IMG/VR virus record: IMGVR_UViG_3300000288_000150
From: a virus
Lineage: Duplodnaviria; Heunggongvirae; Uroviricota; Caudoviricetes
Length of the DNA: 34,474 nucleotides
Strand: one strand, 5' to 3'
In this document: one piece after another, positions 3,238 to 33,037 of the stretch
Layout of the letters: each line of letters starts with the position of its first letter
Position numbering within the stretch: the stretch's first letter is position 1
The notes under the pieces: model-generated
Told to the model about the DNA's origin: nothing
What the model saw: the letters and a program-made list of their open reading frames with translations, nothing else
The model's database searches: none
Made by a program: the position numbers and the translations under genes

Positions 3238-3509
3238 GTATTCGTATTGAAATTGGCGAACGTTATGTCGTTACCAGTGACAGCTTTCAGTTTATTCTCC
3301 ACGAGAAAAAGAGAGCTGAAAGCGGTAAAAACGCCGGTCAGGAATGGCTGGCGGTGGTTGGTTATTACCCGAAATTAAGCCAGCTCGTTTCCGGCCTGAT
3401 GCATCACGATATTCTGACCGGAAGCGCAAAGTCTTTTGCTGATTTAAACGCGCAGGTTGAGCAACTCAGCAGGCGTTGTTCAGAGGCTTTTGGCTCATAT
3501 GGCCGTTAA
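3234..3509 (+). CDS. Small early protein (P2 orf83-like)
   Basis: 91-aa ORF, ATGA overlap with the upstream gene, overlaps the start of A. Confidence 0.5.
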   Translation: MSIRIEIGERYVVTSDSFQFILHEKKRAESGKNAGQEWLAVVGYYPKLSQLVSGLMHHDILTGSAKSFADLNAQVEQLSRRCSEAFGSYGR

Positions 3510-5784
3510 AGCCTCCGGGCGTTTTGTCCCTCCGTCAGCATTTGCCGCAGGCACCGGTAAGACGTTTACCGGTGCTTATGCATGGAACGCGCCACGCGAG
3601 GCCGTCGGGCGCGAAAGACCCCTTACACGTGACGAGATGCGTCAGGTGCAAGGTGTTTTATCCACGATTAACCGCCTGCCTTACTTTTTGCGCTCGCTGT
3701 TTACTTCACGCTATGACTACATCCGGCGCAATAAAAGCCCGGTGCACGGGTTTTATTTCCTCACATCCACTTTTCAGCGTCGTTTATGGCCGCGCATTGA
3801 GCGCGTTAATCAGCGCCATGAAATGAACACCGACGCGTCGTTGCTGTTTCTGGCAGAGCGTGACCACTATGCGCGCCTGCCTGGAATGAATGACAAGGAA
3901 CTGAAAAAGTTTGCCACCCGTATCTCATCGCAGCTTTTCATAATGTATGAGGAACTCTGCGATGCCTGGGTGGATGCGCATGGCGAGAAAGAATCACTGT
4001 TTACGGATGAGGCTCAGGATCACCTGTATGGTCATGTTGCTGGCGCTGCACGAGCTTTCAATATTTCCCCTCTCTACTGGAAAAAATACCGTAAAGGACA
4101 GATGACCACGAGGCAGGCTTATTCTGCCATTGCCCGTCTGTTTAACGATGAGTGGTGGACTCATCAGCTTAAAGGCCAGCGTATGCGCTGGCATGAGGCG
4201 TTACTGATTGCTGTCGGGGAGGTCAATAAAGACCGTTCTCCTTATGCCAGTAAACATGCCATTCGTGATGTGCGTGCGCGCCGCCAGGCAAATCTGGAGT
4301 TTCTTAAATCATGTGACCTTGAAAACAGGGAAACCGGCGAGCGCATCGACCTTATCAGTAAGGTGATGGGCAGTATTTCTAATCCTGAAATTCGCCGGAT
4401 GGAGCTGATGAACACCATTGCCGGTATTGAGCGTTACGCCGCCGCAGAGGGTGATGTGGGGATGTTTATCACGCTGACCACGCCGTCAAAGTATCACCCG
4501 ACACGTCAGGTCGGAAAAGGAGAAAGTAAAACCGTCCAGCTTAATCACGGCTGGAACGATGAGGCATTTAATCCGAAGGATGCGCAGCGTTATCTCTGCC
4601 GTATCTGGAGCCTGATGCGCACGGCATTCAAGGATAATGATTTACAGGTCTACGGTTTGCGTGTCGTCGAGCCACACCACGACGGAACGCCGCACTGGCA
4701 TATGATGCTTTTTTGTAATCCACGCCAGCGTAACCAGATTATTGAAATCATGCGTCGCTACGCGCTCAAAGAGGATGGAGACGAAAGAGGAGCCGCGCGA
4801 AACCGTTTTCAGGCAAAACATCTTAACCGGGGCGGTGCTGCGGGGTATATCGCGAAATACATCTCAAAAAACATCGACGGCTATGCACTGGATGGTCAGC
4901 TCGATAACGATACCGGCAGGCCGCTGAAAGATACTGCTGCGGCTGTTACCGCATGGGCGTCAACGTGGCGCATCCCGCAATTTAAAACGGTTGGCCTGCC
5001 GACAATGGGGGCTTACCGTGAACTACGCAAATTGCCTCGTGGCGTCAGCATTGCTGATGAGTTTGACGAACGCGTTGAGGCTGCACGTGCCGCCGCAGAC
5101 AGTGGTGATTTTGCGTTGTATATCAGCGCGCAGGGTGGGGCAAATGTTCCGCGTGATTGCCAGACTGTCAGAGTCGCCCGTAGCCCGTCGGATGACGTTA
5201 ACGAGTACGAGGAAGAAGTCGAGAGAGTGGTCGGCATTTACGCGCCGCATCTCGGCGCGCGTCATATTCATATCACCAGAACGACGGACTGGCGCATTGT
5301 GCCGAAAGTTCCGGTCGTTGAGCCTTTGACTTTAAAAAGCGGCATCGCCGCGCCTCGGAGTCCTGTCAATAACTGTGGAAAGCTCACCGGTGGTGATACT
5401 TCGTTACCGGCTCCCACACCTTCTGAGCACGCCGCAGCAGTGCTTAATCTGGTTGATGACGGTGTTATCGAATGGAATGACCCGGAGGTCGTGAGGGCGC
5501 TCAGGGGCGCATTAAAACACGGTCGGAGAACGCCAAACCGTCAGCAAAGAAACGGAAGCCCGTTAAAACCATATGAAATGGCACCATCGGCCAGACTGAC
5601 CCGGTCGGAACGAATGCAAATTACCCGTATCCGTGTTGACCTTGCTCAAAAGGGTATCAGGCCGCAGCGATGGGAACTTGAGGCGCTGGCGCGTGGAGCA
5701 ACCGTAAATTATGACGGGAAAAAATTCACGTATCCGGTTGCTGATGAGTGGCCGGGATTCTCAACAGTAATGGAGTGGAAATGA
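3499..5784 (+). CDS. A: Replication initiation protein A (rolling-circle nicking endonuclease, P2 gpA)
   Basis: 761 aa from the internal ATG (MAVKASGRF...) of ORF 3457..5784; contains the HxH-type motif (EPHHDGTPHWHMM) and tyrosine-rich region (GYIAKYISK) of rolling-circle initiators. Confidence 0.9.
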   Translation: MAVKASGRFVPPSAFAAGTGKTFTGAYAWNAPREAVGRERPLTRDEMRQVQGVLSTINRLPYFLRSLFTSRYDYIRRNKSPVHGFYFLTSTFQRRLWPRIERVNQRHEMNTDASLLFLAERDHYARLPGMNDKELKKFATRISSQLFIMYEELCDAWVDAHGEKESLFTDEAQDHLYGHVAGAARAFNISPLYWKKYRKGQMTTRQAYSAIARLFNDEWWTHQLKGQRMRWHEALLIAVGEVNKDRSPYASKHAIRDVRARRQANLEFLKSCDLENRETGERIDLISKVMGSISNPEIRRMELMNTIAGIERYAAAEGDVGMFITLTTPSKYHPTRQVGKGESKTVQLNHGWNDEAFNPKDAQRYLCRIWSLMRTAFKDNDLQVYGLRVVEPHHDGTPHWHMMLFCNPRQRNQIIEIMRRYALKEDGDERGAARNRFQAKHLNRGGAAGYIAKYISKNIDGYALDGQLDNDTGRPLKDTAAAVTAWASTWRIPQFKTVGLPTMGAYRELRKLPRGVSIADEFDERVEAARAAADSGDFALYISAQGGANVPRDCQTVRVARSPSDDVNEYEEEVERVVGIYAPHLGARHIHITRTTDWRIVPKVPVVEPLTLKSGIAAPRSPVNNCGKLTGGDTSLPAPTPSEHAAAVLNLVDDGVIEWNDPEVVRALRGALKHGRRTPNRQQRNGSPLKPYEMAPSARLTRSERMQITRIRVDLAQKGIRPQRWELEALARGATVNYDGKKFTYPVADEWPGFSTVMEWK

Positions 5785-6233
5785 TGGCAAAAATTCACGA
5801 GGTAAAGCTGCACGCAAAATATTTCGACCTTGTGCTGGAAGGAAAGAAACGTGCAGAGTTTCGGAAAAATGACCGTAATTATGAGCGCGGGGACACGCTG
5901 ATTTTGCATGAATGGGTACAGGGTGTGTTTACGGGGCGAAAGGTTGAAGCCCGGATAACAGATGTTACTGACCTGTCAGACTGGCTGGAAGATTATGTCT
6001 TGCTAAGTATTGAGCTGCTTAATACAGGCGCATATGAGATTGTGAACTGGAAAGAACTTAGTGAGCGTGGTCTGGTATTCAGAATTAATCATGAAATTAT
6101 GCATCAGCTCGGTCTTGCTGTTATGTATGAGTCAGTGACAGGCCTGTCTGGCGGAGCAGTGGTTGCTGCGGATGGGATGTGGAGCTATTCAGATGAACAG
6201 GTGGAGTGTGCAAAGCAAAAAGGGTGGTTTTGA
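5781..6233 (+). CDS. ASCH-domain (PUA-like fold) protein
   Basis: 150 aa from the ATG at 5781 (GGAG RBS; overlaps the A stop). N-terminal EVKLHAKYFDLVLEGKKRAEFRKNDRNYERGDTLIL resembles the ASCH beta-barrel motif. Domain call from memory, not searched. Confidence 0.5.
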   Translation: MMAKIHEVKLHAKYFDLVLEGKKRAEFRKNDRNYERGDTLILHEWVQGVFTGRKVEARITDVTDLSDWLEDYVLLSIELLNTGAYEIVNWKELSERGLVFRINHEIMHQLGLAVMYESVTGLSGGAVVAADGMWSYSDEQVECAKQKGWF

Positions 6234-6235
6234 AA

Positions 6236-6469
6236 ATGCACAGAATACCAGGCGAGATACCTCAGCATAAAACTAAAAATATCAAGCTGATGGCCATTGT
6301 TCACCGTCTACAGCAGATTATGGTCAACGAAAATCTGACGCCTGATGAGCTGGTCGGGTGTGCCGAAATGGTCCGGGATAATTACAGACGGTTTAACGAT
6401 ATCAGTAGACAGAAAATTGAGGTATTTCGACCAGCAAACATGCCTAAGAAACTACCGCATAGGATGTAG
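6236..6469 (+). CDS. Hypothetical small protein
   Basis: 77 aa from the ATG at 6236 inside ORF 6206..6469; no recognisable motif. Confidence 0.35.
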   Translation: MHRIPGEIPQHKTKNIKLMAIVHRLQQIMVNENLTPDELVGCAEMVRDNYRRFNDISRQKIEVFRPANMPKKLPHRM

Positions 6470-6475
6470 TATACT

Positions 6476-6508
6476 CGCCATTTCTGAAACTTGTTTTCAG
6501 AGATGGCG
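6476..6508 (+). terminator. Strong hairpin (14-bp stem, one mismatch) after the early/replication operon; possible terminator or regulatory structure
   Basis: CGCCATTTCTGAAA...TTTCAGAGATGGCG inverted repeat a few nt after the stop of the 6236..6469 ORF; no clear T-tract follows. Confidence 0.35.
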
Positions 6509-6684
6509 GGGTTGAACAATGAGCGTAGCGACGTGTTAGCTTTGATTCCTGCTGTGTTTACAATTAAACCTATTGAAAATTAATGAGAACTCAATTTCAT
6601 CTTTCTCTCGTTAAAGATGGCCACAACTACTAAAACATGAGAATATCAAAACTTGGCGAAATCTAGCTTTTCCCAAGGGGTGGT

Positions 6685-6720
6685 TTCGCTATAATACGCG
6701 GTCGGTTTTTAGGAGGGGCG
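6685..6720 (+). promoter_or_regulatory. Putative promoter -10 (TATAAT ~6690-6695) and strong Shine-Dalgarno (AGGAGG ~6708-6713) for the methyltransferase
   Basis: Consensus TATAAT hexamer and AGGAGG 7 nt before the ATG at 6721, in a ~250-bp AT-rich intergenic region; -35 not convincing. Confidence 0.35.
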
Positions 6721-7659
6721 ATGCCAACTGTAGTTTCACTTTTTTCTGGATGTGGTGGTTCTGATGCGGGAGTTTTGAGAGCAGGGTTCAATGTGCTGAT
6801 GGCAAACGATATTTTGCCTTATGCAAGGGACGTTTACTTAGAAAACCATCCTGAAACTGATTACATATTGGGCGATATTTCAGGACTCCAATCGTTCCCT
6901 TCTGCCGAATTGCTTATCGGATGCTATCCTTGCCAGGGATTTAGCCAGGGTGGAGCAAGGAAGGCAGATAGAAAGATTAATACTCTATATTTAGAGTTTG
7001 CTCGTGCTTTGAGAAAGATTAAGCCAAAAGCATTCATTGTAGAGAATGTTTCTGGAATGGTAAGGCGTAACTTTGAACATTTGTTAAAGGATCAATTCAA
7101 AGTTTTCGAAGAAGCAGGTTATACAGTAAGCTCGCAAATTCTGAATGCGTCCCACTATGGCGTATCACAAGATAGGAAGAGAATCTTTATCGTAGGAATA
7201 CGAAAAGACTATGGTATTACATACAAATTTCCAAAACCAACACATGGTGATGGCTTGAAACCATATTCAACAATTCGTGATGCTATTGGTCATATGCCTG
7301 TTTGGCCTATTGGTGAGTTTTATGATGCCGATTTTCATTGGTATTATCTATCGCGCAACCGTCGGCAAGATTGGGATCAGATATCTAAAACAATTGTTGC
7401 AAATCCTAGACATATGCCTCTACATCCAATAAGTCCAACATTAGAAAAATTGGGTCCAGATAAGTGGCAATTTACTTCGGATGCACCAGCTCGTAGGTTT
7501 AGTTATCGAGAGGCCGCTATTTTACAGGGTTTTGGAGACCTAATTTTTCCAGAAACTGAACGGGCTTCTATTAATATGAAGTATACAGTAGTTGGCAATG
7601 CTGTTCCGCCTCCTTTATTTGAGGCGGTTGCTAAATCTCTTCCAGATATTTGGGATTAG
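6721..7659 (+). CDS. DNA (cytosine-5)-methyltransferase, small M.HaeIII-like architecture
   Basis: Motif I FSGCGG, motif IV GCYPCQGFS, motif VI FIVENVSGM, motif VIII QDRKRIF, motif X TVVGNAVPPPL, with a variable target-recognition region between VIII and IX. 312 aa. Confidence 0.9.
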   Translation: MPTVVSLFSGCGGSDAGVLRAGFNVLMANDILPYARDVYLENHPETDYILGDISGLQSFPSAELLIGCYPCQGFSQGGARKADRKINTLYLEFARALRKIKPKAFIVENVSGMVRRNFEHLLKDQFKVFEEAGYTVSSQILNASHYGVSQDRKRIFIVGIRKDYGITYKFPKPTHGDGLKPYSTIRDAIGHMPVWPIGEFYDADFHWYYLSRNRRQDWDQISKTIVANPRHMPLHPISPTLEKLGPDKWQFTSDAPARRFSYREAAILQGFGDLIFPETERASINMKYTVVGNAVPPPLFEAVAKSLPDIWD

Positions 7660-8652
7660 TTATTCGACCTTAAGATCATTGATAATTTGTTCGAAATCAA
7701 GAAACCATTGTTCTGAAACTATTTTAGGGCAATGGTTTGTCTTTTTTAAAAGCTGTAATATCCTTGCTCTGTCAATGATCAATACTCCAGCGCAAGGGCT
7801 ATTGTCTACCCATTGACCATCTGAGTTTCGATAGAATACGGGGGTAAACATTAGAGTTGGTATGTCAAAATGCACTTGAAAATATGTTCGTAGTTTCAAT
7901 GAGTGGGCTTCAAGTGTTTTTTTGGGCCAATCTCTTTCTTGGGCTCCACATTGACCTAAAAAGGCAAAGTTACTACTTAATTTATCTTCAAATTCTATAG
8001 TTGCAACTATATCAAAACCACCATCACCTCTCGGATCAGCTCTTTCGCACTCTTGCTCATTAATATAAGGAACAGCTAAGTCTTTTCCTAGCCTTTTCAA
8101 GGCTTTTCTTAAATCAGTACCATAATATTTTCGCCTGTCATCTGAGTTTGCGTCAAATACTCGTACAGTTGAGTGTGCTGGGAGTAGTGCTGTTGCACAA
8201 AATTTACTTACGACAGCAAAATTTTTTGCCCAAAACTGTATTATTCCTTGCCTAGCCTTTGTGAAAGAACGTAACCTCGAGCATGCGAGTAAGAAAATAT
8301 ATATTCTTTGTATCTCAGTGAGGTTTTCTTTCAATGAAATAAAGTCACCATTAATAATAAATGGATAAATATCCTTGAGAAAATTTTGTCTAAAATCGAG
8401 TTGCGTCCAGACATCTTCAACTTGTCTTTCTAAACGGTCATTGCGTTCAGCATCGCAGCCTTCATTTTCATCTTCTTGATATTCTTGATCAATATCATCC
8501 ACACTTGTGTTACTTTGAGTTCTTATTGTTATGAGGTCATTTTTATGTAGATCATAACGACCAGAATAATTTATAACCGTAGCAAGTTCTGCAAGGTCTG
8601 CAAAAAGATGAGGAACACTAGGATGAATGTCTCCGATTTTAAAAATCTTCAT
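7660..8652 (-). CDS. Uncharacterised cargo protein; candidate restriction endonuclease or nuclease effector (possible PD-(D/E)xK-like motif)
   Basis: ORF 7660..8700 minus; preferred start is the ATG at 8652 (MKIFKIGD...), overlapping the upstream gene's stop by ~14 nt. Stop codon directly abuts the MTase stop (7657-7659 / 7660-7662). Segment ...GDGGFDIVATIEFEDK... could be a D...E-x-K catalytic motif. AT-rich. Confidence 0.55.
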   Translation of the reverse strand: MKIFKIGDIHPSVPHLFADLAELATVINYSGRYDLHKNDLITIRTQSNTSVDDIDQEYQEDENEGCDAERNDRLERQVEDVWTQLDFRQNFLKDIYPFIINGDFISLKENLTEIQRIYIFLLACSRLRSFTKARQGIIQFWAKNFAVVSKFCATALLPAHSTVRVFDANSDDRRKYYGTDLRKALKRLGKDLAVPYINEQECERADPRGDGGFDIVATIEFEDKLSSNFAFLGQCGAQERDWPKKTLEAHSLKLRTYFQVHFDIPTLMFTPVFYRNSDGQWVDNSPCAGVLIIDRARILQLLKKTNHCPKIVSEQWFLDFEQIINDLKVE

Positions 8653-9757
8653 CGTCAGAAACCTTTTTGGCTTTAATTGTATTACCAATAAGTTTGACAT
8701 TTTGACTTAGGCGTCTTGCAACTTCCAATGCTTCAGGATTGTAATCAATGGTTGCAACAATTCCAGCCGCTTCAATTAATGCAGATTCAGCTTTATAAAG
8801 TAACGTCATGAAATCTTGTTTTAAGTCTTCAGTTAACTGATACGCAACCTTAAGGTCAGCCCCGTTTCTAAAGGACGTTAAAGCCTTGGGGTTATCAATA
8901 ACAGAAGATAATAGGCGTAAATTTCGGGACTCTCCAACCTTTGTTTTCCCGGAATCATCCTTTTTATAAAGCCATACTGTAAGTTCTCTGGTATTTTCTC
9001 TATTTATATGATGTGGGTGAATTATTACATCATTGGATGTAATATCACCATATTCGTCTTTTTCTGAAACGCCAACAAACAATCCAATTTTCTCGTCAGC
9101 TAAGGCTGTAGATAAAATTGAAAACTTGATCGATTCTTCATCTAATCCATCAATATCATAAAAGTTATTGCTCTCCATTACTTTATAAACGGCTAAAGCA
9201 TCTAGATTTCTCTTGATATGATCTTTTCTGCTACCGATTGCACGAGCAACCTGATGATATCGATCATTAGTCGGTGAGTTTGGGGAGGTGAGACCAAAAA
9301 GTTGCTCGATATAACGAGCCTTCGATAGAGGTTCCCATTGTTTGACACCAGTGATATGTCTGAAACCCAAATAAGGTAAAATTTCAGCTCTGGTATCTCT
9401 AACGATCACTGGTAATTTTTCTAGTGTACCTAGTTTATCTTTAGCGCTTTCGGCGATTTCTATCATCCGGGAGCTGGGTCTGTCGCACTCATATGGGTTA
9501 TGAATAAGTTTAACTGCCGTTAAGCGACGGTTGCCTTCCACAACGGTGTACTTATCTCCCTCTTTAACCGCAATAAGAGGCTCGCCAGGAAAAAATCCAT
9601 TTTCTGCGATTGCATTCATCAAGTCTTCAATAGAGGTTGTTAGAGCTATATGATTTAGCATTGCTTCTGGGGTACGTTCAACACCTTCAGGAAGACGTGG
9701 ATTTTTTGTATCAAGCTCAAGTTTATTGAGGTCGATGTAATCAAGGCTTTCTGTCAT
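8639..9757 (-). CDS. ParB/Srx-fold (ParB N-terminal-domain-like) protein, first gene of the two-gene cargo operon
   Basis: ORF 8639..9790 minus; likely ATG start at 9757 (MTESLDYIDL...). N-terminal region ...IDLNKLELDTKNPR... + ...GFFPGEPLIAVKEGDKYTVVEGNRRLTAVKL... matches the ParB-box pattern. AT-rich. Confidence 0.65.
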   Translation of the reverse strand: MTESLDYIDLNKLELDTKNPRLPEGVERTPEAMLNHIALTTSIEDLMNAIAENGFFPGEPLIAVKEGDKYTVVEGNRRLTAVKLIHNPYECDRPSSRMIEIAESAKDKLGTLEKLPVIVRDTRAEILPYLGFRHITGVKQWEPLSKARYIEQLFGLTSPNSPTNDRYHQVARAIGSRKDHIKRNLDALAVYKVMESNNFYDIDGLDEESIKFSILSTALADEKIGLFVGVSEKDEYGDITSNDVIIHPHHINRENTRELTVWLYKKDDSGKTKVGESRNLRLLSSVIDNPKALTSFRNGADLKVAYQLTEDLKQDFMTLLYKAESALIEAAGIVATIDYNPEALEVARRLSQNVKLIGNTIKAKKVSDDEDF

Positions 9758-9944
9758 AACTCTAATCTCATTAGATATGGTGATATGCAAAGATTAACAC
9801 TGGAGTTAAACGTAGGCTAGAACTGCAATTATGTGCATTAAAATGCATGCGTAAGTAACTCGCTAAAATGAAGCCATAAACTCACAGTGGTGCTATGAAT
9901 AATATGTTATGCAACTGCATTAAAACCGACCCATGAAGCGGGCG

Positions 9945-9963
9945 GGCGAGGCGGGGAAAGCAC
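9945..9963. other. cos site: candidate 19-nt cohesive-end sequence GGCGAGGCGGGGAAAGCAC
   Basis: Sequence matches the P2 cohesive-end sequence as I recall it, and lies where cos is expected (between the old/tin-position cargo and Q), in a GC-rich non-coding stretch. Confidence 0.55.
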
Positions 9964-10102
9964 TGCGCGCTGGCGGTGGTGCGGATTTTATTTTTTCAGC
10001 GTCTGAGCGTGTCGTGACGGCGTTTAGATTGTGCGCCGGGGCATTGGTGTGTCTGCGGGGTGTTTTGTGCGGTGGTGAGCGTGTGAGGGCGTGATGACGG
10101 GA

Positions 10103-10132: not shown

Positions 10133-11167
10133 TCAGCCGTTGTCAGTGTCCAGTGAGTAGTTTTTAAAGCGGATGACCTCCTGACCGATCCAGCCGTTTA
10201 TCTCGCGGATCCTATCCTGTAACGGGATAAGCTCATTGCGGACAAAGACCTTTGCCACTTTCTCAATATCGCCCAGTGACCCGACGTTCTCCGGCTTGCC
10301 GCCCATCAACTGAAAGGGGATGCGGTGCGCGTCCAGCAGGTCAGCGGCGCTGGCTTTTTTGATATTAAAAAAATCGTCCTTCGTTGCCACTTCACTGAGC
10401 GGGATAATTTTGATGCCGTCGGCTTTCCCCTGTGGGGCATAGAGAAACAGATTTTTAAAGTTGTTGCGGCCTTTCGACTTCACCATGTTTTCGCGGAGCA
10501 TTTCGATATCGTTGCGATCCTGCACGGCATCAGTGACGTACATGATATATCCGGCATGAGCGCCGTTTTCGTAATACTTGCGGCGGAACAGCGTGGCCGA
10601 CTCATTCAGCCAGGCAGAGTTAAGGGCGCTGAGATATTCCGGCAGGCCGTACAGCTCCTGATTAATATCCGGCTCCAGCAGATGAAACACGGAGCCGGGC
10701 GCGAAGGCTGTCGGCTCGTTGAAGGACGGCACCCACCAGTAAACATCCTCTTCCACGCCACGACGGGTATATTTCGCCGGTGAGGTTTCCAGTCTGATGA
10801 CCTTACCGGTGGTGCTGTAGCGCTTTTCCAGAAACGCATTACCGAACACCAGAAAATCCAGCACAAAGCGGCTGAAATCCTGCTGGGAAAGCCACGGGTG
10901 CGGGATAAACGTTGAAGCCAGAATATTACGTTTGACGTAAATCGGTGAGCTGTGATGCACGGCAGCACGCAGACTTTTTGCCAGACCGGTAAAGCTGACC
11001 GGCGGCTCATACCATCTGCCGTTACTGATGCATTCGACGTAATCCAGAATGTCACGGCGGTCGAGTACCGGCACCGGCTCGCCAAAGGTGAATGCCTCCA
11101 TTTTCGGGGCGCTGGCGGTCATTGTTTTTGCCGCAGGTTGCGGTGTTTTCCCTTTTTTCTTGCTCAT
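10133..11167 (-). CDS. Q: Portal protein (P2 gpQ)
   Basis: 344 aa from the ATG at 11167 (MSKKKGKTP...), matching P2 Q length. The ORF-track extension to 11293 runs through an N-run and is an artefact. Confidence 0.9.
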   Translation of the reverse strand: MSKKKGKTPQPAAKTMTASAPKMEAFTFGEPVPVLDRRDILDYVECISNGRWYEPPVSFTGLAKSLRAAVHHSSPIYVKRNILASTFIPHPWLSQQDFSRFVLDFLVFGNAFLEKRYSTTGKVIRLETSPAKYTRRGVEEDVYWWVPSFNEPTAFAPGSVFHLLEPDINQELYGLPEYLSALNSAWLNESATLFRRKYYENGAHAGYIMYVTDAVQDRNDIEMLRENMVKSKGRNNFKNLFLYAPQGKADGIKIIPLSEVATKDDFFNIKKASAADLLDAHRIPFQLMGGKPENVGSLGDIEKVAKVFVRNELIPLQDRIREINGWIGQEVIRFKNYSLDTDNG

Positions 11168-11183: not shown

Positions 11184-11262
11184 NNNNNNNNNNNNNNNNN
11201 NNNNNNNNNNNNNNNNNNNNNNNNNNNNNNNNNNNNNNNNNNNNNNNNNNNNNNNNNNNNNN
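11184..11262. other. Run of N (assembly gap or masked segment) at the P/Q junction
   Basis: 79 consecutive N. Confidence 1.
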
Positions 11263-17944: not shown

Positions 17945-18423
17945 TGATTGTGCTGGTCGTGTTGTTATCGCTGGCGGTGTCCGGTCTGTTTCTGGTGAAA
18001 CACAAAAATGCCAGCCTGCGCGCCTCGCTGGACAGGGCGAATAACGTCGCCAGTGAACAGCAGACGACCATCACCATGCTGAAAAATCAGCTTCATGTTN
18101 NNNNNNNNNNNNNNNNNNNNNNNNNNNNNNNNNNNNNNNNNNNNNNNNNNNNNNNNNNNNNNNNNNNNNNCACCAGGGCAGACAAAAACGAGCTGGCGCA
18201 GGTGGCACTGCGTCAGGAACTGGAAAACGCCGCGAAGCGTGAAGCTCAGCGCGAGAAAACCATCACGAGATTACTCAATGAAAACGAAGATTTTCGCCGC
18301 TGGTACGGTGCTGACCTGCCTGATGCTGTGCGCCGGTTGCACCAGCGCCCGGCCTGCGCAGACGCCAGTGATTGTCCACAACGCCTGCCCGAAAGTGAGT
18401 CTTTGCCCGATGCCGGGCAGTGA
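17932..18423 (+). CDS. lysB: LysB (Rz-like inner-membrane spanin component); interrupted by an N-run
   Basis: N-terminal TM segment then charged periplasmic region; the ORF spans the N-run 18100-18170, so length and frame continuity are unverified. Confidence 0.6.
   Translation: MSKLMIVLVVLLSLAVSGLFLVKHKNASLRASLDRANNVASEQQTTITMLKNQLHVXXXXXXXXXXXXXXXXXXXXXXXXTRADKNELAQVALRQELENAAKREAQREKTITRLLNENEDFRRWYGADLPDAVRRLHQRPACADASDCPQRLPESESLPDAGQ
18100..18170. other. Run of N inside lysB
   Basis: 71 consecutive N. Confidence 1.
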
Positions 18424-19509: not shown

Positions 19510-20208
19510 ATGAACACTCTCGCAAATATCCAGGAACTCGCGCGCGCACTGCGCAACATGATACGCCCCGGCATTATCGTCGAAACCGACCTTAACGCCG
19601 GTCGCTGCCGAGTGCAGACCGGCGGCATGTGCACTGACTGGCTTCAGTGGCTGACCCATCGTGCCGGTCGTTCGCGCACATGGTGGGCACCTTCCGTGGG
19701 GGAGCAGGTGCTGATTCTGGCCGTGGGCGGTGAACTCGACACGGCGTTCGTTCTGCCGGGGATTTATTCCGGCGATAACCCCGCGCCGTCTGCGTCGGCG
19801 GATGCCCTGCATATCCGTTTCCCTGACGGGGCGGTGATTGAGTATGAACCCGAAACCAGTGCACTCACGGTAAGCGGAATTAAAACGGCCAGCGTGACGG
19901 CTTCTGATTCTGTTACTGCCACGGTGCCGGTGGTTATGGTGAAAGCATCAACCCGCGTCACCCTGGACACACCGGAGGTGGTCTGCACCAACAGGCTGAT
20001 TACCGGCACGCTGGAAGTGCAGAAGGGCGGGACGATGCGCGGCAACATTGAACACACCGGCGGTGAACTCTCATCAAACGGTAAGGTACTGCATACCCAC
20101 AAACACCCAGGCGACAGCGGCGGCACANNNNNNNNNNNNNNNNNNNNNNNNNNNNNNNNNNNNNNNNNNNNNNNNNNNNNNNNNNNNNNNNNCGGGAGTC
20201 CTCTATGA
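19510..20208 (+). CDS. V: Baseplate spike/assembly protein (P2 gpV); 3' region interrupted by an N-run
   Basis: MNTLANIQELARALRNM... N-terminus; the N-run 20128-20192 sits near the C-terminus, so apparent length is unreliable. Confidence 0.8.
   Translation: MNTLANIQELARALRNMIRPGIIVETDLNAGRCRVQTGGMCTDWLQWLTHRAGRSRTWWAPSVGEQVLILAVGGELDTAFVLPGIYSGDNPAPSASADALHIRFPDGAVIEYEPETSALTVSGIKTASVTASDSVTATVPVVMVKASTRVTLDTPEVVCTNRLITGTLEVQKGGTMRGNIEHTGGELSSNGKVLHTHKHPGDSGGTXXXXXXXXXXXXXXXXXXXXXXGSPL
20128..20192. other. Run of N near the 3' end of V
   Basis: 65 consecutive N. Confidence 1.
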
Positions 20209-24743: not shown

Positions 24744-25271
24744 ATGCAGCATTTAAAAAACATTAAGTCAGGTAATCCAAAAACAAAAGAACAATATCAG
24801 CTAACAAAGAATTTTGATGTTATCTGGTTATGGTCCGAAGACGGAAAAAACTGGTATGAGGAAGTAAGTAATTTTCAGGAAGACACGATAAAGATTGTTT
24901 ACGACGAGAATAATATAATTGTCGGCATCACCAGAGATGCTTCAACGTTCAACCCTGAAGGTTTTAGCGTTGTCGAGGTTCCTGATATTACCGCCAACCG
25001 ACGTGCTGATGACTCAGGTAAATGGATGTTTAAGGATGGTGCCGTGATTAAGCGGATTTATACGGCAGACGAACAGCAACAACAGGCAGAATCACAAAAG
25101 GCCGCGTTACTTTCCGAAGCGGAAAGCGTTATTCAGCCACTGGAGCGCGCTGTCAGGCTGAACATGGCAACAGATGAGGAGCGTAGCCGACTGGAAGCAT
25201 GGGAACGCTACAGTGTTCTGGTCAGCCGTGTGGATCCTGCAAATCCTGAATGGCCGGAAATGCCGCAATAA
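24744..25271 (+). CDS. G: Tail fibre assembly chaperone (P2 gpG)
   Basis: 175 aa, directly downstream of H. Confidence 0.8.
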
Positions 25272-25422: not shown

Positions 25423-26202
25423 TTAAAATATCCAACTGATAAATCCACCTGAATACTTTTCACTAATTTTGATTGCATAAAGATCATGAAGAGTTATAAA
25501 TAAATCATTATCTTCTTTGAAAATTAACTCCTCATACTCTGCCATTATCAAATTATGCTGTGTTGTTAGTTTAGATATGTTATCTATTTCACTGGCAAGC
25601 ATGGATTTGTTTACATTGGTGTGTGGATCCATGGCAATATATTTCCGCATCAATGGAATTAGTTGATCAGGGTCTATATTTTTTGCATTTTCCTTTGCTT
25701 TTTTTTGTCTTTCTGAATAGATGGAGTTAATTGTGTTAGTGTGTTTTTTCGCCAGTCTCTTAAACTCTGGATATGAACCAGTAACTAATGCAAGCTCTTC
25801 GTACTTAAGGAATAAATCGATATTGCATTTTTTTACCGTCATTTCAAGATCTTCAACTCTTTTTTTTAACTCTTCATTTGTTTTAATAAGAGACATCGGG
25901 AGAACTTCATAATGTTGTCCTAATTCTGAATCAGGGCTCATTGCCATATGTACTATTTCATTATACATGAGCTGATAAGAAGCAGATAACTCTCCATACT
26001 TTAGAAATAGTTCATTATGTGAAGATGAACAAGAACTTTGTAATTTCATCATTGGCCTAAAGTAATCCTTTATAAACTCCTCCTGAAGATCTTGGTCTTT
26101 TTTGTAGCTCTCTAGGATTCCAGCAAAAAGAAATGACCCTAAAGATATAGAGATTATGGATATTAGCAATTGACTAAGGAATGATTGTGTTTCATTACTC
26201 AT
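25423..26202 (-). CDS. Cargo gene in the Z/fun position: membrane-anchored protein of unknown function (N-terminal TM helix, Lys/Glu-rich helical body)
   Basis: 259 aa, strongly AT-rich against GC-rich tail genes, opposite strand to flanking late genes. Hydrophobic segment LLISIISISLGSFLFAGIL near the N-terminus. Start codon sits directly against the N-run at 26203, so the 5' end is not fully certain. Confidence 0.6.
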   Translation of the reverse strand: MSNETQSFLSQLLISIISISLGSFLFAGILESYKKDQDLQEEFIKDYFRPMMKLQSSCSSSHNELFLKYGELSASYQLMYNEIVHMAMSPDSELGQHYEVLPMSLIKTNEELKKRVEDLEMTVKKCNIDLFLKYEELALVTGSYPEFKRLAKKHTNTINSIYSERQKKAKENAKNIDPDQLIPLMRKYIAMDPHTNVNKSMLASEIDNISKLTTQHNLIMAEYEELIFKEDNDLFITLHDLYAIKISEKYSGGFISWIF

Positions 26203-26279
26203 NNNNNNNNNNNNNNNNNNNNNNNNNNNNNNNNNNNNNNNNNNNNNNNNNNNNNNNNNNNNNNNNNNNNNNNNNNNNN
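26203..26279. other. Run of N immediately upstream of the Z/fun-position cargo gene start
   Basis: 77 consecutive N. Confidence 1.
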
Positions 26280-26527
26280 AAAAAATAACACGAAAAGTGA
26301 CTCCTGACAGGGAAGAAACGACAGGTCGGAAACAAACTTAACTGATGAGTTAGCTGTAGTCCAGAACCTTGTTTTAACACTTAGTGTGACTGTTTGCATC
26401 TCAGGAATTTGTGCCAATAATATTTGAATCCTTATAATTTATTTAAATCAAATTTAGTTACTCGCTCAAAGCAGGCTGTCAGATTTGATAGCGTTTGGGC
26501 TATGTAAACTGTCAGTCGGAAAATGAG

Positions 26528-26668: not shown

Positions 26669-27859
26669 ATGAGTGACTATCATCATGGCGTGCAGGTGCT
26701 GGAGATTAACGACGGCACCCGCGTCATTTCCACCGTATCCACTGCCATTGTCGGCATGGTCTGCACGGCCAGCGATGCGGATGCGGAAACCTTCCCTCTC
26801 AATAAACCGGTGCTGATTACCAATGTGCAGAGCGCAATTGCAAAGGCCGGTAAAAAAGGCACGCTGGCGGCGTCGTTACAGGCCATCGCTGACCAGTCAA
26901 AACCGGTCACCGTTGTTGTGCGCGTGGAAGACGGCACCGGCGACGACGAGGAAACGAAACTCGCGCAGACTGTTTCCAATATTATCGGCACCACCGACGA
27001 AAACGGTCAGTACACCGGACTGAAAGCCCTGATGGGGGCTGAGTCGGTTACCGGCGTTAAACCGCGCATTCTCGGCGTACCGGGACTGGACACCAAAGAG
27101 GTCGCCGTCGCACTGGCATCGGTATGCCAGGAACTGAATGCCTTCGGGTATATCAGCGCATGGGGTTGTAAAACCATTTCCGAGGTGAAAGCCTACCGCC
27201 AGAATTTCAGCCAGCGTGAGCTGATGGTTATCTGGCCGGATTTCCTCGCATGGGATACGGTTACCAGTACCACCGCCACCGCGTATGCCACCGCTCGTGC
27301 GCTGGGTCTGCGCGCTAAAATCGACCAGGAGCAGGGCTGGCATAAAACGCTGTCCAACGTCGGGGTGAACGGTGTTACCGGCATCAGTGCATCCGTCTTC
27401 TGGGATTTGCAGAAGCCAGGCACTGATGCTGACCTGCTGAACGAGGCAGGCGTCACAACGCTGGTTCGCCGCGACGGTTTTCGTTTCTGGGGTAACCGTA
27501 CCTGCTCTGATGACCCGCTGTTCCTCTTTGAAAGCTACACACGCACCGCGCAGGTACTGGCCGACACGATGGCTGAGGCGCACATGTGGGCTATTGATAA
27601 GCCCATCACCGCAACGCTGATTCGCGACATCATTGACGGCATCAATGCCAAATTCCGTGAACTGAAAAACAACGGTTATATCGTGGATGGCACATGCTGG
27701 TTCAGCGAAGAATCCAACGATGCGGAAACCCTCAAGGCCGGAAAACTGTATATCGACTACGACTATACCCCGGTGCCTCCTCTCGAAAACCTGACCCTGC
27801 GCCAGCGTATTACTTCCAGATACCTGGCAAGTCTGGTCACTTCGGTTAACAGCAATTAA
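26669..27859 (+). CDS. FI: Tail sheath protein (P2 gpFI)
   Basis: 396 aa, same as P2 FI. Confidence 0.9.
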   Translation: MSDYHHGVQVLEINDGTRVISTVSTAIVGMVCTASDADAETFPLNKPVLITNVQSAIAKAGKKGTLAASLQAIADQSKPVTVVVRVEDGTGDDEETKLAQTVSNIIGTTDENGQYTGLKALMGAESVTGVKPRILGVPGLDTKEVAVALASVCQELNAFGYISAWGCKTISEVKAYRQNFSQRELMVIWPDFLAWDTVTSTTATAYATARALGLRAKIDQEQGWHKTLSNVGVNGVTGISASVFWDLQKPGTDADLLNEAGVTTLVRRDGFRFWGNRTCSDDPLFLFESYTRTAQVLADTMAEAHMWAIDKPITATLIRDIIDGINAKFRELKNNGYIVDGTCWFSEESNDAETLKAGKLYIDYDYTPVPPLENLTLRQRITSRYLASLVTSVNSN

Positions 27860-31809: not shown

Positions 31810-33037
31810 TGCTGGATACGCTGACATTTGATGCAGGCAGTACGCTGACGCCGGATTACATGCTGATGCTCGACAGCAGGGATATTACCGGCAATATCAG
31901 CGATCGACTGATGAGCATGACCCTGACGGATAACCGGGGCTTTGAGGCTGACCAGCTTGATATTGAACTGAACGATGCCGACGGGCAGGTCGGGCTGCCG
32001 GTTCGTGGCGCTGTCCTGACGGTGTATATCGGCTGGAAAGGTTTTGCCCTGGTATGCAAAGGGANNNNNNNNNNNNNNNNNNNNNNNNNNNNNNNNNNNN
32101 NNNNNNNNNNNNNNNNNNNNNNNNNNNNNNNNNNNNNNNNNNNNNNNNNNNNNNNCGGGGCGCACCGGATGTGGTCACCATCCGCGCCCGGAGTGCAGAT
32201 TTTCGCGGGACGCTCAATTCCCGCCGTGAAGGCTCCTGGCATGACACCACGCTCGGTGCGATTGTTGAGGCGATAGCCTCCCGTAACAGGCTGGAAGCCA
32301 GTGTCGCTCCGTCACTGGCCGGAATTAAAATCCCGCACATCGACCAGTCGCAGGAGTCTGATGCGAAATTCCTGACCCGTCTTGCAGAACGCAACGGCGG
32401 TGAGGTGTCGGTAAAAATGGGAAAACTGTTGTTTCTCAAAGCGGGGCAGGGGGTGACGGCCAGCGGTAAAAAAAACCCGCAGGTCACCATAACCCGCAGC
32501 GACGGCGACCGCCATCATTTTGCGATTGCTGACCGTGGAGCCTATACCGGCGTAACGGCAAAGTGGTTACACACCAAAGACCCGAAGCCACAAAAGCAGA
32601 AGGTAAAACTGAAACGCAAAAAGAAAGAGAAACACCTGCGCGCACTGGAGCACCCGAAAGCGAAACCAGTCACGCAGAAGAAAGCGCCAAAAGTACCGGA
32701 AGCGCGCGAAGGTGAATACATGGCTGGTGAGGCTGACAACGTTTTTGCCCTGACCACGGTATATGCCACGAAAGCGCAGGCCATGCGCGCCGCTCAGGCG
32801 AAGTGGGATAAACTGCAACGGGGCGTTGCGGAGTTCTCCATCAGCCTTGCCACTGGTCGTGCTGATATTTACACGGAAACACCGGTCAGAGTGTCAGGCT
32901 TTAAGCGCGTCATAGACGAGCAGGACTGGACAATCACTAAGGTGACACATTTTCTGAATAATAGTGGCTTCACGACGTCCTTAGAGCTTGAGGTCAGGCT
33001 TTCTGATGTGGAGTACGAAACAGAAGATGATGATTAA
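31809..33037 (+). CDS. D: Tail protein D (late gene D); interrupted by an N-run
   Basis: N-terminus MLDTLTFDAGSTLTPDYM... and C-terminus ending at 33037 are both D-like but are joined across the N-run 32065-32155 with an apparent frame change, so the gap length is artificial. Confidence 0.8.
32065..32155. other. Run of N inside D
   Basis: 91 consecutive N. Confidence 1.

Follow-up and report, generated by a model that had tools for sequence, protein, structure and literature searches.

The window analysed here, a stretch of 34,474 nucleotides (IMG/VR record IMGVR_UViG_3300000288_000150), is a P2-like (Peduovirus) genome that carries a cassette of three genes between P2 gene A and the cohesive-end site cos. 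The cassette encodes a C5-cytosine methyltransferase (MTase) and, convergent to it, a ParB-like protein and ORF2, a protein with a predicted nuclease fold. The three genes probably work together as a single defence module resembling restriction-modification, which is cargo of the prophage hotspot and has the ParB-like/ORF2 pair as restriction arm. A single module is favoured because the genes are linked across many loci, because three lineages of the pair share one MTase family and because the pair co-varies. A restriction role is favoured by the predicted restriction endonuclease fold and conserved residues of ORF2, together with boxes I and II and the KorB/ParB-like fold and helix-turn-helix (HTH) of the ParB-like protein. 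The Vsr and HhH-GPD companions of related loci, the precedent of the defence system PD-lambda-5 and the order of decay after an IS5 insertion in Escherichia coli JXZ9A32M speak for restriction-modification (RM). The module is conserved and widespread, and is most likely an uncharacterised three-component RM variant with a ParB-fold subunit.

Linkage of the three genes

In 48 of the 51 loci that could be assessed, a C5 MTase of the same family adjoins the ParB/ORF2 pair, across gamma- and beta-proteobacteria, varied mobile elements and varied gene orders. It was found in all 31 assessable viral loci from IMG/VR, 3–60 nucleotides past ORF2, and in 11 of the 14 bacterial genome and assembly loci with enough flanking DNA to be assessed (16 loci came from a scan that took a single genome for each species), among them Pseudomonas, Burkholderia, Methylophilaceae, Edwardsiella, Halomonas and others. 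Close homologues of ORF2 in Pseudomonas, Burkholderia and Methylophilaceae reside in integrase-flanked non-P2 elements with the order ParB, ORF2 and convergent C5 MTase. Distant family members (25–31% identity to ORF2) had a ParB-like gene immediately upstream and an adjacent C5 MTase in six of six cases, with the gene orders M-ParB-R, co-directional ParB-R-M, ParB-R-(HhH-GPD glycosylase)-M and Vsr/HNH_2/M-ParB-R (M, MTase; R, ORF2 relative). Divergence of the MTase among linked loci reaches down to 31%. In nearly all loci where upstream DNA is present, ORF2 is directly preceded and overlapped by a ParB-like gene whose box II is invariant, and the loci without one are contig-end cases (L018, L023 and L063).

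As this near-obligate linkage holds through permuted gene orders and types of mobile element, one functional system is indicated rather than hitch-hiking. Two alternatives had been raised in the original prediction, a two-subunit restriction enzyme with its cognate MTase and an orphan MTase beside an independent defence system, and the comparative context strongly favours the former.

The divergence of the proteins points to a closer relation between two of them. Identities among close loci range from 63 to 98% for the MTase, from 32 to 61% for the ParB-like protein and from 25 to 58% for ORF2. The values for ParB and ORF2 co-vary (r = 0.97, n = 12), whereas that of the MTase does not follow (r = −0.27). 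The ParB-like protein and ORF2 would therefore form a complex, to which the MTase is linked solely through DNA.

Three deeply diverged lineages of the pair, namely those of the window, of phage Wphi (gp98/gp96) and of Pseudomonas phage D14A, share one MTase family, and the D14A lineage lies at a different genome position. Wphi has the same layout as the window, with 98% protein identity for Mth, 25% between gp96 and ORF2 and 32% between gp98 and the ParB-like protein. Nucleotide homology between the window and Wphi ends exactly at the MTase stop codon, which shows the MTase cassette to be one block of recombination and the pair another. The cassette region of the window is 99.9–100% identical to phages vB_EcoM-12474II-V and to prophages of 36 complete E. 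coli genomes. The Wphi lineage is present in 104 such genomes, so that both lineages together occur in 140 of 5426. Each of the three exact window proteins was found on at least 1000 contigs.

Companion genes and decayed copies were also seen among the relatives. Distant relatives encode, in or beside the module, an HhH-GPD glycosylase or a Vsr endonuclease (L032, 2735–3454; L033, 713–1129). Such proteins are typical companions that repair T:G mismatches arising from deamination of 5-methylcytosine (m5C), and their presence argues that the linked MTases truly methylate the genome. An HNH_2 (PF13391) gene stands beside the MTase at three loci (L008, 7165–7929; L009, 3165–4097; L033, 1126–2076). 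The HNH_2 genes match PADLOC profiles for HNH and type II restriction endonucleases, belong to the Methylophilaceae lineage and one distant lineage, and one MTase may serve two nucleases there.

A degraded prophage of E. coli JXZ9A32M contains a Wphi-type module whose ORF2-like gene is split by an IS5 element and whose MTase and ParB genes are intact (L030, 2436–4664). Loss of the ORF2-like gene before the MTase is the usual order of decay in RM. Yersinia phage L-413C retains a module remnant, in which the ParB-like gene survives in truncated form beside orf91 (98% identity over 309 amino acids; L002, 3920–4912) and ORF2 and the MTase are deleted. Yersinia phage HQ103 (MZ420230.2) contains an intact C5 MTase reading frame, 76% identical to that of the window (L026, 2338–3288), which is unannotated in the record. 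The deposited record therefore displays the ParB/ORF2 pair only.

Several observations weigh against a single module. The MTase cassette recombines on its own, without the pair, as the identities in Wphi illustrate (98% versus 25–32%). Three genome loci (L010, L017 and L021) have no C5 MTase next to a pair that seems intact, and given these loci, the pair may not be lethal in its absence. In L017, an IS605-family insertion is found where the MTase would be, and in pair-only loci the MTase may alternatively be encoded elsewhere in the genome. The HNH_2 gene could be the original, ancestral restriction partner of the MTase. Furthermore, the table of tested systems of Rousset et al. 2022 has no methylase or ParB entry, and the arrangement was only catalogued there.

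Such findings would suit two independent units, that is, an orphan or self-protective MTase (for anti-restriction, or as remnant of an HNH-type II system) next to a GmrS/GmrD-type pair that is blind to the methyl mark. Separate exchange of the MTase cassette, the three loci without it and the endonuclease-like HNH_2 genes in L008 and L033 would all be expected, and pairs of a ParB-superfamily protein and a nuclease are known as methylase-free type IV systems. This explanation is nevertheless unlikely, as hitch-hiking is hard to invoke for linkage in 48 of 51 loci through permuted orders, different mobile elements and such deep MTase divergence. In addition, a sensor of modified DNA would be suicidal beside an active m5C MTase, and no DUF262 or DUF1524 signature was detected. 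A single module therefore remains the preferred reading.

The ParB-like protein

The ParB-like protein combines a ParB/Srx N-domain with an HTH middle domain and a helical C-terminus. Box I (NPR) and box II (GNRRL), the predicted nucleoside triphosphate (NTP)-binding residues, are both invariant, and box II of the GxRR type is followed by the HTH, as in ParB-type proteins. The N-domain matched the PD-Lambda-5_A N-domain profiles with an E value of 7.7e-23, and the structure model resembles KorB, sulfiredoxin, PadC and Spo0J. The ParB/Srx-fold protein of about 372 amino acids that had been proposed before is consequently borne out by these profiles and by the model, with the reservation that the match to Pfam ParB_N is weak (0.015; 15.8 bits, under the threshold of 26.3). 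The open reading frame (ORF; 8639–9790, minus strand) would give 383 amino acids from a TTG and gives 372 from the ATG at 9757, which matches the length of the homologues.

With canonical cytidine triphosphate (CTP)-switch clamps such as ParB, KorB and Noc, the protein shares the fold of the N-domain, box I NPR, box II GxRR and the HTH that follows. Unlike these, it has a different C-terminal region, scores below the ParB_N threshold and is without a ParA or KorA partner. Neither the surroundings of the cassette in the window nor any related locus examined contained a gene for a ParA ATPase, and a ParABS partition system was ruled out for lack of ParA.

A role in maintenance or regulation, with the ParB-like protein as partition factor or KorB-like silencer of the prophage and ORF2 as accessory DNA-binding protein, could draw on the fold, which is closest to KorB, ParB and Spo0J and includes an HTH, and on the NCBI name of some copies, 'chromosome partitioning protein ParB'. 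It is highly improbable, given that the ParA partner is missing throughout, that the genes lie in a defence hotspot with an MTase and a nuclease-fold protein as obligate neighbours, and that P2, as a phage integrated into the chromosome, has no use for a partition system.

According to a 2025 PNAS survey, the ParB-CTPase fold binds CTP, ATP or GTP. The three-gene module is not described in this survey.

The predicted nuclease ORF2

The predicted fold of ORF2 consists of a winged helix and a PD-(D/E)xK restriction-nuclease core, which supports assignment as a nuclease at the level of the fold only. The original prediction of a D...E-x-K signature in a protein of about 330 amino acids was right about the nuclease fold, as far as the model goes, and has to be revised for the motif, which is a variant, non-canonical one (GD210xGxD214 ... 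Q234-C-G ... K245). Of all the features described in that prediction, the motif alone needed revision. Down to 23% identity, the residues D19, E22, R88, Y96, D210, D214, Q234, W242, P271, R295 and R297 are invariant, and K245 is nearly invariant across the family. This set of putative catalytic residues is compatible with a nuclease site of the E...D...QxK type with a displaced lysine.

A profile search of 1.84 billion representatives identified 1148 relatives of ORF2, of which 697 had E values of 1e-10 or lower. Full-length members measure about 300–365 amino acids among the 150 matches listed. The family is without a Pfam model, as no Pfam domain was found in 36 diverse members, and searches of ORF2 and these 36 members against Pfam, NCBIfam, PADLOC and PDB sequences gave nothing. 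A single match to NCBIfam MobA (E value 0.0022; 17.7 bits versus a cut-off of 179) was dismissed as chance. A Foldseek comparison of ORF2 with the PDB yielded no match at E values of 0.001 or lower.

The reading frame of ORF2 (7660–8700, minus strand) codes for 346 amino acids from the first ATG (8700) and for 330 from the ATG at 8652, which is the start of phrog_3984 and of all ORF2 homologues.

The C5 methyltransferase

Assignment of the plus-strand gene to the C5-cytosine MTases, already made in the original prediction, is confirmed (Pfam DNA_methylase, 3.7e-62, 211 bits with a cut-off of 22; TIGR00675 dcm, 5.9e-55, 187 bits with a cut-off of 100.65), and the catalytic PCQ and ENV motifs are present (GCYPCQGFS and FIVENVSG). 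The best solved relative is M.HaeIII, which aligns end to end, including the target-recognition domain (1.3e-49), but with only 28% identity in that domain. The target-recognition motif SRNRR..W..SKTIVAN.RHMPLHP is kept across the MTases of the module. Arginines equivalent to R225, R227 and R243, the base-contacting residues of HaeIII, are conserved. Because of the end-to-end alignment and these arginines, a HaeIII-like specificity for GGCC is plausible on sequence grounds.

GGCC is rarer than expected in the whole window (114 observed versus 176 in a second-order Markov model; observed/expected 0.65), a deficit that could be just a general E. coli bias and not selection by the module. CCGG and GCGC are not under-represented in the whole window.

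Comparison with known systems

Among validated systems, PD-lambda-5 comes closest. Its authors labelled it 'ParB/HEPN, methyltransferase' and showed that it protects broadly against phages (Vassallo et al. 2022, PMC9519451). A later preprint places it among systems from P2-like hotspots. In both PD-lambda-5 and the window, a protein with a ParB/Srx N-domain is genetically coupled to a DNA methyltransferase, and the N-domains are homologous. This N-domain is the sole part in common. PD-Lambda-5_A comprises a ParB N-domain and a C-terminal HEPN in about 440–500 amino acids, whereas the window protein aligns with residues 16–169 to positions 4–166 of 466 and is devoid of the C-terminal HEPN. Its effector is instead a separate PD-(D/E)xK-fold protein without PADLOC match. 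The MTase of the window is of the C5, HaeIII-like type and has C5 families as top PADLOC matches, whereas PD-Lambda-5_B is Dam-like; comparison with a PD-Lambda-5_B member showed no significant similarity (best E value 0.011 over 53 residues). Three genes in the window are opposed to two in PD-lambda-5. In genuine PD-lambda-5 loci, such as those of Marinobacter phage AS1 and Vibrio phage ValB1MD-2, the match covers PD-Lambda-5_A entirely or for the most part, and PD-Lambda-5_B is matched as well.

The module is thus not a member of PD-lambda-5 yet follows the same logic. Profile searches against Pfam and PADLOC, a check proposed along with the original prediction, accordingly matched the MTase and the ParB N-domain, left ORF2 unmatched and ended in failed membership of PD-lambda-5.

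In ValB1MD-2, PD-Lambda-5_A is split into a ParB N-part (252 amino acids) and a C-terminal HEPN part (265 amino acids), followed by PD-Lambda-5_B (L028, 3132–5571). Fission of ParB and effector therefore occurs in the PD-lambda-5 family, too.

PD-lambda-5 was called a compacted RM+Abi (abortive infection) system by Vassallo et al. 2022 (PMC9519451), and with a homologous ParB N-domain in the window, a combined RM and abortive-infection or addiction module has to be considered. The pair would then be a toxin held off by methylation, which kills or arrests the host once methylation is upset by infection or by prophage loss, and the tight linkage of methylase and nuclease gene would fit equally well. 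This explanation carries a low probability, since the effector has the predicted fold of a DNA restriction endonuclease and not of a HEPN RNase and the pair-only loci argue against strong self-toxicity. Restriction of incoming DNA by the pair is the reading adopted here.

Classical type II RM systems of the GGCC group (HaeIII, BspRI and MthTI) share with the module the convergent, abutting genes for MTase and nuclease, a HaeIII-like C5 MTase and, by prediction, a PD-(D/E)xK-fold partner. Vsr or mismatch-glycosylase companions, as seen in module relatives, are a further likeness; the companion of MthTI is the Mig glycosylase. As in type II RM, the MTase adjoins the endonuclease-like gene, with abutting stops in the window and adjacency in 48 of 51 loci. 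An endonuclease free of an NTP-binding subunit, as type II RM would have it, is not what the window encodes, as the gene for the nuclease-fold protein is preceded by, and translationally coupled to, that of a predicted NTP-binding protein of the ParB type. The active-site motif of ORF2 is, moreover, non-canonical and falls into no Pfam restriction endonuclease family.

GmrS/GmrD, GmrSD, BrxU, SspE and TgvAB likewise unite a ParB-superfamily NTPase or sensor domain with a nuclease, sometimes as separate proteins, with GmrS/GmrD as the two-protein form. ParB-superfamily sensors joined to nucleases, which use DUF262, have also been described for Dazbog, PD-T4-2 and Menshen besides GmrSD and SspE. 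GmrSD-type systems have no MTase, target modified DNA and carry the DUF262 motif DGQQR and an HNH nuclease of DUF1524, whereas the window has the canonical ParB-like GNRR, a predicted PD-(D/E)xK fold and an MTase. Assignment to GmrSD or type IV was ruled out, as Pfam gave no DUF262 or DUF1524 match and an MTase is present.

In the catalogue of Rousset et al. 2022, the arrangements of the P2 hotspot include 'DNA_methylase + hypothetical + ParBc'. Both this entry and Wphi mth-orf96-orf98 agree with the window in architecture, hotspot and MTase, and the pair is homologous. The Wphi pair is a separate lineage, 25–32% identical to that of the window, and neither lineage has a described function. 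The view that a ParB-fold partner is a non-standard layout therefore needs qualification, given the precedents PD-lambda-5, GmrS/GmrD and SspE and the entry of Rousset et al. 2022. As PD-lambda-5 had established defence by a ParB domain plus MTase and the arrangement was already catalogued, the module is not a new category. Literature searches on ParB and methyltransferase defence, PDC-M38 and CTPase defence turned up neither a description of it nor an experiment with it. A Tn-seq (transposon sequencing) paper on Pectobacteriaceae was dropped as source for MTase essentiality, as it covers the MvaI and SmaI systems only.

Proposed mechanism

The C5 MTase would mark the DNA of lysogen and prophage, probably at GGCC. 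The ParB-like protein, with its CTP or ATP switch domain and HTH, would bind or clamp DNA that is devoid of the methyl mark and would recruit or license ORF2. ORF2 might then cut unmodified incoming DNA, with the consequence that phage DNA is restricted by the lysogen. If so, the module would represent a widespread RM architecture of methylase, ParB-fold switch and nuclease.

More tentatively, and with considerable doubt, the ParB-like subunit could be a nucleotide-gated clamp that loads only where target sites are unmethylated and then slides on the DNA to bring in or activate ORF2, and PD-lambda-5 would be a sister system with swapped effector. If true, NTP-dependent restriction enzymes would gain a new mechanistic class, widespread with more than 1000 sequence clusters, in which a ParB CTP switch takes the place of the ATP motors in types I and III or of the McrBC GTPase.

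If it works as proposed, the module would offer a simple genetic system for studying the roles of ParB-CTPase folds beyond chromosome segregation. It would also link PD-lambda-5, which is validated but mechanistically unexplained, to a class of ParB N-domains with interchangeable effectors and methylases. In K-12 hosts, McrBC and Mrr act against m5C methylases, and this may explain why the module was not recovered in functional screens in MG1655. The K-12 strain used to clone PD-lambda-5 carried a deletion of the mrr region (PMC9519451).

Layout of the cassette and genome context

The positions of the features are compiled in Table 1. Five genes lie between gpA and portal/cos, namely those for a DUF3850/ASCH protein, a small ORF, the C5 MTase, ORF2 and the ParB-like protein. 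No homologue of old or tin was found in this interval of the window, in line with their predicted absence. GC content is 0.36–0.42 over 6500–10000 as compared with 0.52–0.60 in flanking phage genes, which agrees with the AT-rich, horizontally acquired cargo proposed before. Variable and compositionally foreign genes between gpA and cos/gpQ are what characterises P2 hotspot #1, the old/tin locus. The 19-nucleotide sequence at its right boundary is presumably the P2 cohesive end. One of the hotspot clones from Rousset et al. 2022 has the same flank.

Table 1. Positions of the cassette genes and of neighbouring features in the window
Feature	Position	Strand	Evidence or remark
gpA (gene A)	3457–5784		Phage_GPA, 1e-122
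DUF3850/ASCH protein	5748–6233		ORF and Pfam; resembles P2 orf91
Small ORF	6206–6469		
MTase cassette (gene and 163 nucleotides upstream)	6558–7658	+	93% nucleotide identity to phage Wphi mth
C5-cytosine methyltransferase, 312 amino acids	6721–7659	+	ORF and Pfam
Abutting convergent stops	7657–7662		MTase TAG ends at 7659, reverse-strand TAA of ORF2 from 7660; 0 nucleotides between
ORF2, 330 amino acids	7660–8652	−	Predicted winged-helix and PD-(D/E)xK-fold nuclease
Terminator-like hairpin, 17-bp stem and T-run	7702–7748	+	Consensus scan alone, no proof of function; just 3' of the MTase stop, within the 3' coding end of ORF2
ParB/ORF2 overlap, 14 nucleotides	8639–8652	−	ParB stop 8639–8641, ORF2 ATG 8650–8652
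ParB-like protein, 372 amino acids	8639–9757	−	ParB/Srx N-domain, HTH middle domain, helical C-terminus
P2-type cos cohesive-end sequence, GGCGAGGCGGGGAAAGCAC	9945–9963	+	1 exact match, 0 expected; right boundary of hotspot
Portal gene	start at 10133		

The stop codon of the MTase gene directly abuts that of the convergent operon, and the two operon genes overlap, both as anticipated. Judged from the sequence, the overlap of ParB stop and ORF2 start is a predicted translational coupling of the pair, and in homologous loci the two genes likewise overlap or tightly abut. The terminator-like hairpin might end MTase transcripts and reduce transcriptional collision. A simple scan, which is uninformative, found no consensus sigma-70 promoter 5' of the ParB gene (9758–9930).

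The DUF3850/ASCH gene was ruled out as a member of the module, as it occurs in a Wphi-type prophage and is absent from non-P2 loci. The N-terminus of its protein closely matches a DUF3850 protein in the old-tin clone of Rousset et al. 2022 from phage P2, and it is therefore regarded as backbone and not cargo. The protein, encoded directly upstream of the cassette, carries DUF7415 in addition to DUF3850/ASCH. DUF3850 is among the commonest phage fusion partners of the ParB fold in the 2025 ParB-CTPase survey, and it is curious that a DUF3850 gene adjoins a ParB-like module here.

A second strongly AT-rich island (25423–26417, GC content 0.29–0.33) lies between the tail-fibre assembly gene (Caudo_TAP, 24744–25271) and the tail sheath gene (26669–27859), and from these flanking tail genes it appears to be the P2 Z/fun hotspot. 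It contains an ORF of 259 amino acids (25423–26202, minus strand) and one of 72 amino acids that is partly N-masked. The former had no Pfam or PADLOC match and is a possible candidate for an uncharacterised defence gene.

Five runs of N, 65–91 bases in length, interrupt the window (11184–11262, 18100–18170, 20128–20192, 26203–26279 and 32065–32155) and give rise to X-runs in the portal and terminase ORFs and in the second hotspot.

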